Shown here piece after piece: positions 1 to 53,840 of a stretch of 64,000 nucleotides of DNA. The translations under genes and the position numbers were made by a program. Position 1 is the stretch's first letter. Every line of letters starts with the position of its first letter. This DNA is from Octopus vulgaris (Eukaryota): assembly GCA_951406725.2 (NCBI GenBank), contig OX597823.1, positions 72,602,001 through 72,666,000 of the forward strand, written 5' to 3'. The notes beneath the pieces are model-generated. The model searched no databases. It had not been told where the DNA came from and saw only the letters and a program-made list of their open reading frames with translations.

Positions 1-2129
1 CCGCGCCTCTCGACACGAGAGGCTGAGTGCTGTGAAGGGCCAATCACAGCCGAGGAAGTAATCGAGGTGTTGGGAAAGTGCCCCGGGGAGAAGTCGCCGG
101 GTCTCGATGGTCTGCCCTATGAATTTTATAGAAGTATGCCAAACTTGTTCGGGCACCTGCTGGCTAGCGTCTACGCCAACTGGTAGCAGAATGGGAGAAT
201 TCCCAAGTCTGCGAGCCGGGGGCGGTGACCTTGATCAGGAAGGACCCGAACAAGGGGGACGAGATAGGGAACTTCAGGCCCATAACTCTGTTAAACACAG
301 AGTTAAAGATTCTGGCCAAGGTGCTAGCAAAAAGGTTGGCGCGGGTCGTGGACAAACTTGTCGGGGAAGCGCAAACGTGCGCTATCCCCGGCAGAACGAT
401 CCACGACAATCTCCACCTTATACGCTACTCCTTAGAGAGGGTGGGGAAGCTTTCTGGCGCAGGGGGAGCACTGGTACATTTAGACAAGTCCAAAGCATTT
501 GATAGGGTCGACCATCGGTACCTGGCGGCGGTCCTCGGAGAGGCTGGCCTAGGCCCGACCTTTCGAGGTTGGATCGCTGCTTTGTATAGCGACATCGAGT
601 CTGTAGTCAAGGTGAACGGTTCCTTTTCGAAGCCGTTCAGGATCGAGCGTTCAGTTCGTCAAGGGTGTCCCCTGTCCTCGCTCCTATACGTATTGGCTCT
701 TGAGCCTTTGCTGCGGAAGTTGGAGGCACTAGGGGGCGCGCCGCATGATCTATGGTGTGGAAGAGGAGCTACGGCGTATGCGGATGACACCTCCATCATC
801 GTGGCAGACGAAGGCCAGCTTCCAGTGGTGGAAGAGGCCATAAAAAGCTACGAGGCGGTGGCAGGAGCAAAGGTTAACAAGGACAAGTCGGTCGGTTTGC
901 AACTCGGCACCTGGAGGGGCAAGCCGATGCCGTCCAATAACGTCGTAGGGCGTTGGACGGAAGGTCCTGTTAAGCTGCTCGGAGTCTGGTTCGGGCCAGA
1001 CCTCCAGATTGAGAAAAATTGGAGTGAGGTGGCCAACAAGGTGACCGCTCTAACCCAGACCTGGTCTGGGCGGGCGTTATCCCTGCTAGGGAAGGCGGAG
1101 GTGGTGCAGATGTTTATAGCATCAGTAATCACCTACCGTCTGACCGTGGTGCCTTGCCCCGATTTGTGGCTGAACAAGTTGGAGAGAATCCTTTTCCGAT
1201 TTTTGTGGAAAGGAGGAAAGCCACTTGTAAAGCGCTCTGTCTGCTGCCAGAAACCGCTAAAGGGTGGGCTAGGGATGCCTTGGCTGAGGATGCGAAAACT
1301 CGCGTTAAGGTTGAGGCACCTCTGGCTTTACCTGGATGGAGAGTAGGTGTGGTCGCCGCACGTCCGGTTCTACCTTCCCCAGTTAACATCCCTAACGGAC
1401 ATCGGTGCATGGATCAAGCGGAGACCTAAACTGAGTGAATGGCATTTGGAGTGCCGTCAGGCGCTCCAGCTACTATCTCGGGTGGGCAACGCCGGCAACA
1501 GGAGTTCCACCACGGATTTCTATAGCGGGTTAGTGGAGATTAAGTCCGAAGACGCCTTGGGGGAGACCCTGGGCTACGATGAAAATCAGTTGATCAACCT
1601 GTTCCGGAGGACGTTCGGGCCGGGGTATCTGGATAATTACCAGAAATCCCTAGCCTGGCAGTGTTTCCGTGCGGCTTTACCTGTTCGCGACAAGCTGTCA
1701 AGGCACGGTAGTGCCGTCTCGCCGACATGCCCGCGATGTGAGCAGGATAGGGAGACCGTCTTGCACGCATTCGTGGAGTGTCCGGAGTTATCGGGACTGA
1801 TAGCTTTTGTAGAACAACTGTTTTCAGTGATGGGAAGAGTACAGCTATCAGCTGAGTCTATCATCGAGATTGTGCCGCCCCCTTTCCTTAACAGGGAAAG
1901 AAAGGCTTGTTTTTTCTGTGTAGTAGCCATACTGAAAGAAACAGTATGGAAGACGCGTACGAAAGGTATAGTGACAGGCACCTTTGTCTCCGGCCAGGGG
2001 TTGATTAACTTTTTTAGTTACCACCTCAGTAGCAAAATCAGGCTGGAGAAGAGGTGTCTGTCACGAGATATGTTTGTGAAAAGATGGAAGCCTGTGGCAT
2101 ACAAGATGGGTATGTTTGGCACCAGGTAA
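1..2129 (+). pseudogene. LINE ORF2 (reverse transcriptase + CCHC zinc finger), disrupted
   Basis: Continuous RT-like protein with three lesions: TAG at 184-186, a frameshift in the G-run near 218-224, and TAG at 1344-1346. Natural stop at 2127-2129. Confidence 0.9.
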
Positions 2130-2347
2130 GTGTGACCGGATCAGAAAGTAAAGGATGGCTGGGTGTCCGTCCTTCGACATGATCATTAATATTTTTAAAC
2201 ATTGCCTTCGTAAAATTCATTGTTTATAATCTTATCCGTAATTTCATTCGAAAATTGTAACTGTGTTAAGCTACTTCACCCTTTATATTTGTCTGTCCTT
2301 GTTTGTCCCCTCTTTGTAAATGCCTAAATGGCAAATTATATGAAATA
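1..2347 (+). mobile_element. Tx1/L1-clade non-LTR retrotransposon, 3' part (5' end outside window)
   Basis: GC-rich block. RT motifs KSPGLDGLPYEFY, NFRPITLLNTELKILAK, LDKSKAFDRVDH, VRQGCPLS and YADD (777-788), plus a C-terminal CPRC...HAFVEC zinc finger. 3' UTR 2130-2347 ends in gaaata. Confidence 0.92.
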
Positions 2348-2706
2348 AAGTAGCTTGCTAACACATGGTTCCGGGTTCAGTGCCACTGCGTGGCATCTTG
2401 GGCAAGTGTCTTCTGCTATAGCCCCGGGCCGACCAATGCCTTGTGAGTGGATTTGGTAGATGGAAACTGAAAGAAGCCTGTCGTATATATGTATATATGT
2501 ATGTGTTTGTGTGTCTGTGTTTGTCCCCCTAGCATTGCCTGACAACCGATGCTGGTGAGTTTACGTCCCCGTCACTTAGCGGTTCGGCAAAAGAGACCGA
2601 TAGAATAAGTACTGGGCTTACAAAGAATAAGTCCTGGGGCCGATTTGCTCGGCTAAAGGCGGTGCTCTAGCATGGCCGCAGTCAAATGACTGAAACAAGT
2701 GAAAAA

Positions 2707-2715
<9 letters not shown>
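2348..2715 (+). mobile_element. tRNA-derived SINE family A (CORE-like), lacking its first ~24 nt
   Basis: B-box-like ggttccgggttcagt, CORE-like cttgggcaagtgtctt, internal (TA/TG)n and tail catggccgcagtcaaatgactgaaacaag. Multiple copies in window. Confidence 0.9.
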
Positions 2716-2775
<60 letters not shown>

Positions 2776-2776
<1 letters not shown>

Positions 2777-2983
2777 CGCAGGAGTGGCTGTGTGGTAAGT
2801 AGCTTGCTTACCAACCACATGGTTCTTGGTTCAAACCCACTGCGTGACACCTTGGGCAAGTGTCTTCTACGATAGCCTCGGGCCGACTAATGCCTTGTGA
2901 GTGGATTTGGTAGACGGAAACTGAAAGAAGCCCGTCGTATATATGTATATATATATGTGTATGTGCGTGTTCGTGTGTCTATG

Positions 2984-3024
<41 letters not shown>

Positions 3025-3228
3025 ATAAGTTTGTGCCCCCAACATCACATGACAACCGATACTGGTGTGTTTACGTCCCCGTAACTTAGCGGTTCGGCAA
3101 AAAGGGGCCGATAGAATAAGTACTAGGTTTACAAAGAATAAGTCCTGGGGTCGATTTGCTCGACTAAAGCCGGTGCTCTTGCATGGCCGTAGTCAAATGA
3201 CTGAAACAAGTAAAAAGAGTAAAAGAGC
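2776..3228 (+). mobile_element. SINE family A, full length
   Basis: gcgcaggagtggctgtgtggtaag head through aaaagagtaaaagag tail; preceded by (TA)n at 2715-2775. Confidence 0.93.
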
Positions 3229-9760: not shown

Positions 9761-9960
9761 TAAGGCAGCGAGGTGGCAGACACGTTGGCACGACGAGTGA
9801 AATGTTTAGCGGTATTTCGTCTGTCTTTGCGTTCGGAGTTCGAATTCCGCCGAGGTCGACTTTGCCTTTTATCCTTTCGGGATCGATAAATTAAATACCA
9901 GTTGATTACTGGGGTCGATGTAATCGACTTGCCCCTTCCCCCAAAGTTTCGGGTTTTGAT
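9761..9960 (+). mobile_element. SINE family B, alternative tail
   Basis: aaggcagcgaggtggcaga head and gtcgactttgccttttatcctttcgggatcgataaa central domain; tail gccccttcccccaaag differs from the 38887 copy. Confidence 0.88.
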
Positions 9961-21917: not shown

Positions 21918-22855
21918 GTGTATACTTTCAATGCTGATATCAGAAAGGAGTTCGGACTGAGAAAATGTGGTATGTTAGTCTTGAACAGAAGCAAAATCAA
22001 ATGTATGGACGGACTATCGATACCTTCGGGAGAGGATATGAAGCAGATAGAAGAGGCGGGTTATAAGTACTTGGGGATTTGGGAAATGAATAAATTAGAG
22101 AAGGAAATTACAGAAAAATTTAAGGTGGACTACATGAGGCAGACAGGGACTTATCCCTAAGACGAAATCAAACAGACAGAATAAGATTGAAGCTATCAAC
22201 ACCTGGGCGGTTTTACTCCTTAAACATGGAGCAGAGCTAATCGCATGGTTAGTAGACAAACTAAAGGGCTTATTGACAAAGACAACGAAGTAGCGAACTA
22301 GATATGGGATACTCCACCCAAAAAGTGACACAGGCAGATTATATGTACAAAGAAAAAAGGAGAAGAGGACTTATTGGACGCGAACACAGCATTGGTGCCG
22401 ATGAAAACAACACAGTATTGTATGTAAAAATGCTACATAACCTCAATTATTGGAAGTAAGAACGTCAGGCTTGTGTAGGTTGAAAGATTACAAAGATAAA
22501 TCATTGTACAATCAATTGAAAACGTATGAAAATGAAAATAGATGGGTAAAGAAAAGTATGTATGGACAATTCCATAGGGATGTTGATGATCAGACAGACA
22601 GAGAAAAAAAGTGGCTGTGGATGACTAAAAGTGATTTAAAACCAGAAACAGTGGCTCTAAGCTGTGCTTCTGAAGAGCAAGCACTAAGGACAAACTACAT
22701 AAAATACAGGGTAGACAACACATCAAAAAATTGATAAGTGCAGAATCTATGGACAAAATTGTGAAACCGTATGGCATATTACCAGCCAATGTACGCCACT
22801 AGTCCAGAAGGAATATAAGAAACGCCACGACATTATAGCAAGGCTTGTCTATTGG
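21918..22855 (+). mobile_element. R4/Dong-clade non-LTR retrotransposon fragment
   Basis: DIRKEFGLRKC...YKYLG, W..KSMYGQF, SDLKPET...EQALRTNY and zinc knuckle CRI...ETVWHITSQC...YKKRHD. Confidence 0.85.
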
Positions 22856-33412: not shown

Positions 33413-33830
33413 TGGCGAAGGCATGACTGTGTGATTAAGAACCTCGCTTTGTAGCCACATGGTTCCGGGATCAATCCCACCTCGACAAAGTTTAACTTGG
33501 CCCAGAACTAACCAATAATTCTTCAATGAATTTCATAGCGAATACTGTTTGCAATCCTGTGTTATACACAAATTCACGCGCGCTCGCACACACACATAGA
33601 CAAACACACAAACACACGTGCATGTATGCATGAGTGTGTTTGTACTTGTGCCTTACCGCTTGACAAGCTCTGTTGGTTTACTCTTACTTTCACGTAGCAT
33701 AGCCGTTCGGCAAAAAATACCGACAGAATAAGAACCGGACTTACGAAGAAATAAGAACTGGGATAGATTCCTTACATTAAACTTTTGAAGGTGAGGTGCA
33801 ATAAAGCATGGCCGCAATAAAGATTAAAGA
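33413..33830 (+). mobile_element. SINE family A-related, old copy
   Basis: ccacatggttccgggatcaatccc, gttcggcaaaaaataccgacagaataag and gcatggccgca. Confidence 0.75.
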
Positions 33831-33892: not shown

Positions 33893-34080
33893 TTTATTTC
33901 TTTATTACTCACAGGGGGGCTAAACATAGAGGGGGCAAACAAGGACAGACAAAGAGTTTAAGTCGACTATATCGACCCCAGTGCGTAACTGGTACTTATT
34001 TAATCGACCCCGAAAGGATGAAAGGTAAAGTCGACCTCGGCGTAATTTGAACTCACAGCGTAGCGGCAGACGAAATACAT
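33893..34080 (-). mobile_element. SINE family B with LINE-like tail, 5'-truncated at gtatttcgtc
   Basis: Reverse complement of the 38887 copy from gtatttcgtctgcc onward. Confidence 0.9.
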
Positions 34081-34081
34081 A

Positions 34082-34308
34082 TTTCTATTTCTTTACTACT
34101 CACAGGTGGCTAACCACAGAGAGGACAAACAAAGACAGACAAACGGACTAAGTCGATTGCATCGACCCCAGTGCGTAACTGGTACTTAATTTATCGACCT
34201 CGAAAGGATGAAAAGCTAAATGACCTCGGTGGAATTTGAACTCAGAACATAGCGGCAGACGTAGCATTTCGCCCGGCGTGTTAACGTTTCTGCCAGCTCG
34301 CCGCCTTA
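34082..34308 (-). mobile_element. SINE family B with LINE-like tail, full length
   Basis: aaggcggcgagctggcagaaacg head through gtagtaaagaaatagaaata tail. Confidence 0.9.
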
Positions 34309-34679: not shown

Positions 34680-35255
34680 GGGAGAGGGGAGGAGAATAAG
34701 ATTGCATCTGTATGATGGATTGAATCGACCCTAGTACTTTACTGCTACTTTATTCTATCGACGCTAAATGAATAAAAAGCGTAGTTGTCTTCAATAAAAT
34801 TTATACTCAAAACACAAAGAGTGAGAAGTAAATGTTCCTTTGATTATAGGGACAAGGAGTTAAATTTTGTGGGAGGAAGAGAGCCGATTACATTAAACCA
34901 AATGATCAAGTGATACCTATTTTATCGACTCCGAAACGATGAAAGACAAAATCTACTTCGGTGGATTTTGAAGTCAAAATGTAAAAGACGGACGGTATGG
35001 CACTAAGCGTCTTGCCCGGCATGCGAACGATTGTGCAAGCAGAAATTAAATATTGATTTCAAATTTTGGCGCAAGACCATCAGTTTTAGTTGAGGCGTTT
35101 AAACAGATAACATCGACAGCAGTGCTCAAATGTAACTTATTTTATTGACCCCGAAAAGATGAAAGGGAAATTCGACCTCAGCGGAATTTGAAAGCAGAGA
35201 ATGCCGCTTCGCCTTTTGCCCGGCGTATTAAAGATTCTGCCAGGTCACCGCCCTT
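34680..35255 (-). mobile_element. Cluster of ~3 old family-B-related SINEs
   Basis: Repeated decayed tttatcgacnccgaaa.gatgaaag...cgacctc.gcggaatttgaa modules. Confidence 0.7.
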
Positions 35256-35895
35256 TGCGGCAAGAAAATATTACAAGGCAATTGTTACGAAGTCTTCAAG
35301 GTCAGGTTGAAATATATTATAATTCATTAAAAAATCTAATCAACAAAAAATATTAATACAAAAAGCTGAAAAAGATACAGAAACATTTTCCTCGATAGCA
35401 AACATGAAACTGAAAAAGAAGTATTGGAATTACAGAACTTGCTGGAAAGTGCACAAGGTAGTCAGGAAAGAATATTTTCAAATATTCATATCAGGTATGT
35501 GCCTGATTTCCATGTAATACATGTCTCATGTCCTCTATACTTTGTATCTTTTATGAAGGTCAAAATTGTCCAAGGTTACTGTTGATATTACTCTTAAGAT
35601 TTTTCAATTTACTATTACAGCTTTTCCTGAGAAAATGCTGTAAATATTTTTACTCTCTCTATATATATATATTCTGACCTATTAAGTGATGTTTATCGCT
35701 TAACTTATACTTAGAAGACAATTGTTTAAGTAAATTACAAACTCTTATTTTAAAAATTGCTTATACATAAACCACTTTATTTTATCTTCCCAAATAGATT
35801 ATAATAGTGTAACACAGCATTATTCTTCGCAAACAGTTATGCATTTACAATAAAAATGTATTGATACAATCTCTAAAATGTACATAAAACAGTTC

Positions 35896-38796: not shown

Positions 38797-38886
38797 AGAG
38801 AGATAACATAGAAAGATTGACTGTTTGGCTGAGCTGTTTTACTGTAGTATATTGTGCTACCTTCTCTCGTCGGTATAATGCTTGTG

Positions 38887-39132
38887 AGCTGGCAGAAACG
38901 GCGGCGAGCTGGCAGAAACGTTAGCGCGCCGGACGAAAGGCTGAGCGGTATTTCGTCTGCCGCTACGTTCTGAGTTCAAATTCCGCCGAGGTCGACTTTG
39001 CCTTTCATCCTTTCGCGGTCGATAAATTAAGTACCAGTTACGCACTGGGGTCGATGTAATCGACTTAATACCTATGTCTGTCCTTGTTTGTCCCCTCTAT
39101 GTTTAGCCCCTTGTGGGTAATAAAGAAATAGA
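38887..39132 (+). mobile_element. SINE family B, full length, with 13-bp target-site duplication
   Basis: TSD tataatgcttgtg at 38874-38886 and 39133-39145; tRNA-like head; tail shared with the LINE at 2290-2347. Confidence 0.95.
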
Positions 39133-39838
39133 TATAATGCTTGTGCCAGCATTATACATAAACATCACTCGTCTATGTTTTCAAGTCATTTGAACCACTG
39201 TTGGCATGAATCATTCTACATTTGTACAAAAATTTTCTCATTGTCATTTATATGCACCAACTCGCTTGCTTCCTCCCTTAGGTACTGATGCACGCACTCG
39301 CAAACGGACTCACTCAGGCACACACCCAGCCATCAACTCACTCTCTATATAACGTACTTCTGCTCTTAATCAACTTATCTATATGCATTTTTGCTCAGTA
39401 TCTCTCTAACCTCCAGTTTCTATTATTCCGATAATAGACAAATAACTGTCTGGGCTATTGTAAATTTATTGATCAAAATTTCTCTCTCGAATAGATTCGC
39501 AAAAGCTGGGTGAGCTAACGTATCTACCTAATTATTAAGCAGGTATGTATGTGGTTTCTTCATTCCAGACGGCAAGAGATCGGTTAATAACAAGCAAACA
39601 AACAAAATATATGTGGTGGTGTAATTGTTATTGTCACCTGCTCCTAAGTATCTGTAATCAGTTTTCGTACAATTTCCATTCAATGTGGTAATATGTTAGT
39701 TCAATATTATTGGGAAAAGATTTCCTAGCATATAAATAGATGTAGAAACACAAGCATGCATACAAATCTTGTGGCAGTGTGAATATATATATATACATTA
39801 TGTATGTATTATGTATGCATATAAATATAAATATATAA

Positions 39839-53647: not shown

Positions 53648-53840
53648 ATGCTTTCGGTATTTCATCTGCCGTTACGTTGTGAGTTCAAATTCCGCTGAAT
53701 TCGACTTTGCCTTTCATCCCTTCGGTGTCGATAAATTAAGTACCAGTTGCGCACTGGGGTCAATGTAATCGACTTAATCCGTTTGTCTATCCGTGTTTGT
53801 CCTCTCTGTGTTTAGCCTCTTGTGGGTAGTAAAGAAATAT
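53648..53840 (+). mobile_element. SINE family B with LINE-like tail, 5'-truncated
   Basis: ggtatttcatctgccg...gtttagcctcttgtgggtagtaaagaaata. Confidence 0.9.

Follow-up and report, generated by a model that had tools for sequence, protein, structure and literature searches.

Stringent SINE/LINE tail pairs number 58 in Ohshima's survey, and the partners tabulated there belong mostly to the L2, CR1 and RTE types (PMC3747384, Table 1). The bivalve pairs described involve CR1, CR1-Zenon, L2 and Nimb elements, with 35–61 bp of homology (PMC11481361). L1-clade partnerships are represented by ZmSINE2/ZmSINE3 with LINE1-1_ZM in maize and by SINEX-3_CR with L1-1_CR in Chlamydomonas; SINEs with an L1 tail make up 3 of the 58 pairs in the survey, none of the three being from animals (PMC3747384, PMC3472496). 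For SINEU and Tx1-Mar of crocodilians, the main sign of partnership was a shared target, found in 13–90% of the copies, and the same source describes the target-specific elements Tx1 (in Tx1D), Keno (in U2 snRNA genes), Kibi and Koshi (both in microsatellites) (PMC4494074). In the case of SART1Bm and R1Bm, the RNA of the element may anneal to its target (PMC7265360).

The locus from Octopus vulgaris considered here lies at the beginning of a 64,000-nt stretch of contig OX597823.1, the whole of which is called the window below, and likely represents a Tx1–SINE tail pair together with a SINE-targeting LINE, that is, a variant of the known kinds of system. As in the stringent pairs, 3' sequence is common to LINE and SINE, poly(A) is absent, a hairpin stands near the terminus (in the LINE and in two of four SINE copies) and the tail has been swapped on a common SINE body; in contrast to them and to the bivalve pairs, the partner is Tx1-like and the homology, shorter at 28–30 nt, is located 5' of the hairpin and does not reach significance at the terminus itself. 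As in maize and Chlamydomonas, an L1-group LINE shares its 3' end with a SINE, here putatively of tRNA type, but those LINEs are plant and algal L1s, whereas the present one is Tx1-like and comes from an animal. Similarly to SINEU/Tx1-Mar, a Tx1 family is the putative SINE partner and the LINE appears to prefer a site in another interspersed repeat. However, that pair has a shared target, a Mariner element, with no shared 3' end found, while here a 3' block is shared, the target is a SINE head, and none of the four tailed copies of the partner (SINE B) occupies the site in the target family (SINE A), a number (n = 4) with which a weak preference would still be compatible. The Tx1-like RT and the fixed junction and orientation in a multicopy target are shared with Tx1, Keno, Kibi and Koshi, the difference being the target, a tRNA-like SINE head. 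Finally, short target-related words are present in or behind the 3' UTR of this putatively site-specific LINE, as in SART1Bm and R1Bm, but the RNA of those elements corresponds to the top strand, its pairing partner being the nicked primer strand, whereas the UTR motif here has the opposite sense. In the literature searched (including PMC8967140, PMC10294476 and PMC5786205, and apart from Repbase Reports and most subscription papers) neither a tail shared by a Tx1 element and a SINE in an animal nor a Tx1 element targeting a SINE was reported, although supplements may list such cases.

The window DNA is rich in microsatellites and SINEs and opens within the ORF2 of the LINE. The LINE and its insertion site consist of the following parts:

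1–2129, plus strand: 3' part of ORF2 of a Tx1-like LINE with RT (RVT_1) and zf-RVT domains; the 5' part is outside the window
2130–2347, plus strand: LINE 3' UTR without poly(A); 10 bp behind 2152, present in contigs of all four runs compared, are missing from the window copy
2268–2276, plus strand: 9-nt motif AAGCTACTT, an exact reverse complement of the target flank 2348–2356
2288–2317, plus strand: block common to the SINE B tail, by alignment (24/24 at 2290–2313)
2321–2333, plus strand: 4-bp stem with a 5-nt loop; predicted pair probability 0.76–0.85 in RNA ending at 2347 and 0.16–0.2 in read-through RNA
2342–2347, plus strand: terminal GAAATA, the LINE 3' end, behind which a diverged contig departs (at 2348)
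2348–2704, plus strand: SINE A copy without its first 21 nt, the 3' half of the likely target, with a B-box-like motif at 2374–2384 and a private 5-bp deletion near 2360
2776–3216, plus strand: uninterrupted SINE A with the empty site between 2796 and 2797, GTGGT^AAGTAGC

The ORF2 copy is dead: stops interrupt it at 184 and 1344, and the frame changes near 190–225. The best of 615 homologues was a protein of Argonauta hians (64% identity). The RT gave bit scores of 196 with ORF2 of Xenopus Tx1 (P0302) and 218 with Polyodon YTX2, compared to 118–120 with human L1 and 51–66 with R2, so the Tx1 affinity proposed in the original prediction held in the sense that, by bit score, this RT is nearer to Tx1 than to human L1 or R2. 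In an RT tree of 38 rows, built without an L1 outgroup, the window RT clustered with Argonauta and two other rows (100/100), separately from the Xenopus Tx1 group. The designation of the LINE as Tx1-like is supported by these comparisons. Relatives of the element carry the APE endonuclease domain PF03372, and the window starts downstream of any such region and of any ORF1; the ESM Atlas returned generic RT and zf-RVT clusters that bear no clade name. Behind a microsatellite, at 21930–22160, an open frame resembling by eye another LINE ORF2 fragment was also seen.

Words of the segment 1000–2350 were present at fractions of 0.64–0.81 in 20 of the 24 runs listed. Contigs of four runs (X1, X2, X9 and X10, originating from four studies under three organism labels) were compared with positions 1760–2389; the records mentioned below belong to the 32 pieces listed of 2,801, and their contig depth is not equivalent to copy number. 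Record 31 of X9 spanned 2062–2313 with no other letters at a depth of 1554.7, while the other seven X9 records listed had depths of 9.5–44.8, and it carried the 10 bp missing from the window copy behind 2152. Because of this depth and the 10-bp difference, the contig cannot be the window locus alone. Contigs agreeing with it were found in X1 (record 6, 1920–2317), X2 (record 24, 2153–2317) and X10 (record 13, 2047–2362). Two joints in X9 (2128 to 2281, side 33, and 2141 to 2278, side 36) had lost the middle of the UTR and regained the match up to 2313, and the records paired with both of them, as judged from depth and end point, showed 13 other letters in 112–131 bp of ORF2. Another X9 contig (record 32), with 18 other letters and 5 gaps, covered 2154–2348 and then departed, which fixes the end of the LINE. 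Other LINE copies had been expected to lack this 3' end if 2271–2347 were an independent SINE fragment inserted behind the LINE; instead, a high-depth contig joins ORF2, UTR and block, and two diverged copies keep the block. The block, the hairpin and GAAATA are, hence, part of a multi-copy LINE family and not a stray SINE fragment, and the retention of the block in diverged LINE copies means that it was kept in diverged members of the lineage. Summed depth at the block exceeded that of the UTR 1,700–7,600-fold in all four runs, from which the shallow runs were taken to reflect a pooled family signal. The summed X9 depth at the end of ORF2 (1823–2074) was up to 30 times that of the UTR, which suggests that many related families share the ORF2 but not the UTR.

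The SINE B family is present in the window in two forms, with and without the LINE-like tail:

38900–39130, plus strand: full-length SINE B with LINE-like tail (block 39075–39098, hairpin 39106–39118)
34080–34305, minus strand: SINE B with tail, stem broken, two GAAATA units at the end
33895–34078, minus strand: 5'-truncated SINE B with tail, stem broken, directly behind the preceding copy
53657–53839, plus strand: 5'-truncated SINE B with tail, stem kept via a G-U type pair
9764–9930, plus strand: SINE B-like, same head and body, different tail
35106–35256 and 34882–35040, minus strand: SINE B-like, same head and body, different tail

The 24-nt identity reported between the LINE at 2290–2313 and SINE B at 39075–39098 was found to be exact (24/24). 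Further copies of the block start at 33928 (1 mismatch), 34118 (2) and 53784 (3), and altogether 5 matches with up to 3 mismatches were present in the 64-kb window against 0 in 100 shuffles; the longest exact match between UTR and SINE in 500 shuffles was 13 nt, compared to 24 nt observed. The similarity extends over approximately 2288–2317, with 27/28, 28/30, 26/29 and 26/30 identical positions in the four SINE B copies. The derivation of the SINE B tail from the whole of 2271–2347 could be upheld only for this block, since LINE and SINE diverge upstream of about 2288, and the similarity 3' of the block was not above shuffles (210, 784, 898 and 343 of 2000 reached the score, with SINE ends 1–2 nt off). 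Likewise, the "same tail" attributed to the copies at 33893, 34082 and 53648 was there as far as block and GAAATA are concerned, but with 1–3 mismatches in the block and with the 4-bp stem in only one of the three. Four SINE B copies have the LINE-like tail and three others share the body and diverge behind GTAATCGACTT; this occurrence with two different tails marks the LINE-like tail as a swapped-in module. The tailed copies were 5.5–10.7% diverged from their majority (4 copies), while 558 bp of the window LINE copy held 2 substitutions and a single 10-bp gap relative to the closest contigs listed (about 0.4%), and block-bearing LINE copies near 10% divergence exist. The block pattern had no matches in metagenome contigs and none in viral contigs, and a related-locus scan of metagenome contigs gave 32 pattern matches with none confirmed. 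A segment in the middle of SINE A (2506–2528) also resembled the block (20/23 identical, E 0.046), reflecting either low complexity or an old relation, and was treated as low complexity.

The predicted terminal hairpins were confirmed both in the LINE (TGCC-TAAAT-GGCA at 2321–2333) and in SINE B (GCCC-CTTGT-GGGT at 39106–39118), and so were the GAAATA ends in all five elements, the LINE and the four SINE B copies (2342–2347, 39125–39130, 33895–33900 minus, 34086–34091 minus and 53834–53839). GAAATA is the shared 3' terminal unit of these elements, which have no poly(A), and is doubled in one SINE B copy. The conservation of structure in the tail turned out to be weaker than claimed: the hairpin stem is kept in two of the four SINE B copies, and the fold z-scores of the last 40 nt were -2.4 for the LINE and -1.5, -0.2, -0.6 and -0.9 for the SINE B copies, whose tails thus folded no better than shuffles.

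A point missed in the original prediction is that the LINE ends at one fixed base of SINE A, just after an A-box-like motif. The SINE A copies at 2348–3216 are arranged head to tail with a (TA)n run between them, the first being the interrupted one. Five of the 32 pieces listed of 2,801 reached the LINE end, and four of the five entered SINE A at the identical base (records 7 and 8 of X1, 13 and 16 of X10), the exception being the diverged record 32 of X9; two of these four carried a different upstream sequence, belonging to differently tailed sister elements. In X1 the depth of the junction contig (9.94) was close to that of the UTR contig (10.3), and in X10 a single contig spanned 2047–2362. 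Of the 23 loose-end rows listed (104 more exist), 7 lay behind 2357–2362; their 22 contigs, from all four runs, showed SINE A without the deletion and in no fewer than three variants, 18 of them presumably starting in the LINE tail. Loose ends before 2321, 2328 and 2329 revealed at least three other upstream sequences with a similar hairpin, whose loops (e.g., CTTGT, CTAGT, TTTAT) differed among the sister ends, with few full tails in the sample. The differently tailed sister elements at the SINE A site are candidate LINEs. The interrupted SINE A copy (2348–2704) is 6.7% diverged from the majority of the other window copies, while the LINE copy is nearly identical to the contigs, which makes the target older than the insertion. 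Site-specific insertion of the LINE at one SINE A base is the simplest reading of these 3' junctions and is likely, the 5' end of the LINE and any target-site duplication being outside the window. An additional joint in X9, from 2317 to 2367, for which the intervening letters were not given, could correspond to SINE B or to a diverged LINE tail within the SINE A site. B-box-like motifs were recognized in SINE A and B by consensus, and neither head matched the A-box pattern where it would be expected; no matches were obtained with ARAGORN and Rfam.

The 9-nt UTR motif, noticed post hoc, complements the target flank in antisense orientation at all nine positions; in 1000 shuffles at each of three target widths such a match arose 0, 2 and 3 times. 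Other 30-mers of the SINE A head had antisense matches of at most 6 nt and the sense-strand likeness of the UTR to the target was not above shuffles (559–704 of 1000). The motif is absent from the SINE B copies (best match 5–6 nt). Three sister ends have an AGCTA(C)-type word just 5' of the hairpin with no block between, as seen by eye in the 30 nt displayed. In the predicted fold of read-through RNA, the 9-mer closes a stem with pair probabilities mostly above 0.8 and the terminal hairpin drops from 0.85 to 0.2. The motif may bind a protein, act as a guide or be a relic.

Taken jointly, the data make it somewhat probable that an older member of the LINE lineage gave SINE B its tail and supplied the RT which copied it, and that the young family targets SINE A by target-primed reverse transcription at TT/A. 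According to this scheme, the tRNA-like head of SINE A would be nicked by the endonuclease at a TT/A step of the bottom strand, and reverse transcription would start from the GAAAUA end. The LINE tail would have been joined to a SINE B body by a one-time template switch, and the RT would have recognized the block, probably together with the hairpin. The burst of SINE B would then be owed to a lineage member that was older or less site-specific, and not to the very young family of the window copy. The partnership with SINE B is opposed by the position of all four tailed copies outside the SINE A site, by the stem broken in two of them and by SINE folds comparable to shuffles. Moreover, the related ends having the same hairpin but no block in the 30 nt displayed imply that the block is not needed by all of the elements.

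The direction of the transfer might also have been the reverse: through template switch or conversion, one LINE lineage would have gained 30 nt of the very abundant SINE B tail as a patch, and another LINE would mobilize SINE B. This we consider unlikely, but worth weighing: comparison with the sister ends makes the block appear inserted between the AGCTAC-type motif and the hairpin, its summed depth far exceeds that of the UTR, and the identity is perfect inside the block and not significant 3' of it. On the other hand, the block persists in LINE copies whose ORF2 is about 10% diverged and whose match in the mid-UTR is lost, SINE B bodies exist that have no LINE-like tail, LINE and SINE B both end in GAAATA (28 and 26 nt behind the block) instead of poly(A), and the SINE B loop CTTGT recurs in one sister end, all of which fits better with the LINE as donor. 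The assumption that the junction is a single old insertion multiplied by 3' transduction, segmental duplication or carriage in another element seems very improbable. It draws on the presence of a single junction in the window and on short-read contigs breaking inside SINE A, which hides the flanks, but at least four different sequences precede the junction in the contigs and three SINE A variants follow it, the junction contigs listed do not have the 5-bp deletion of the window, and divergence is much higher in the SINE A copy than in the LINE copy. Hardly any credence is left for an independent SINE B fragment or a chance match at 2271–2347. The block is pyrimidine/TG-rich and has the above-mentioned counterpart within SINE A, but chance is excluded by the shuffles, and an independent fragment is refuted by the contig evidence, in which ORF2 is joined to the block at high depth and the flanks of the block are not SINE B on either side; a single-locus origin is disfavored by the depth and the 10-bp difference.

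The remaining alternative concerns the choice of the site, which might be assisted by RNA: the same LINE machinery would mobilize SINE B, the 9-nt motif would pair with the displaced top strand or with read-through RNA, and SINE B, having no such motif, would insert anywhere. The complete complementarity, the comparable words at the matching place in three sister ends and the lack of the motif in SINE B, coupled with its absence from the target, are in line with this idea, which nevertheless appears doubtful: the motif was noticed post hoc, is short and near-palindromic and may be a protein-binding site or a relic, the 9-mer competes with the terminal hairpin in the read-through fold, and target choice is credited mainly to the endonuclease in the text of PMC4494074. 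Slightly more doubtful still is an extended three-way version, where a Tx1 LINE would use the motif as a 9-nt antisense guide to one base in the promoter region of SINE A, splitting its head, and SINE B would have taken the RT-binding tail without the guide, left the target and spread genome-wide. If true, a single 80-nt tail would hold two separable RNA modules, one for RT recruitment and one for the choice of the site.

Returning to the preferred reading, in which the LINE lineage is the donor of the tail and the partner of SINE B, an animal Tx1 with a sequence-recognized tail, if true, would bear on the question of stringent RNA recognition as the ancestral state in the L1/Tx1 group. RNA recognition and site choice would become directly testable in a family of this kind, young and site-specific, having a short target and natural variants of the tail. 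Such a system would, furthermore, be a candidate engine for part of the large SINE load of octopus: 11.6% of the O. vulgaris assembly is SINE, and 13 L1-Tx1 families have been recently active (PMC13282606).

Among the individual SINE B copies, the full-length one at 38900 is flanked by a 13-bp duplication (38874–38886 and 39133–39145), and a clear duplication was not found around the 53657 copy and the 34305/34078 pair (5 and 8 nt). A 13-nt partial repeat of the SINE B head, similar to a 5' template jump, occupies 38887–38899 and so separates the duplication from the full head. The two copies at 33895–34305 on the minus strand form a tandem, the first of which lacks approximately 10 nt of the head near the start of the second, so one copy may be nested inside another; both share the stem-breaking GAGT variant. 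The tRNA-type SINEs OR1, OR2 and OK of Ohshima and Okada (1994) are reportedly abundant in octopus. SINE A and B may be among these families, of which OR1 and OR2 are named in PMC4824008, PMC4758252 and PMC5804259. SINE A (2561–2638) and SINE B (33684–33762 and 34718–34771) also have a loosely similar central word near GATAGAATAAGTACT / GATAAATTAAGTACC, possibly a common conserved domain.
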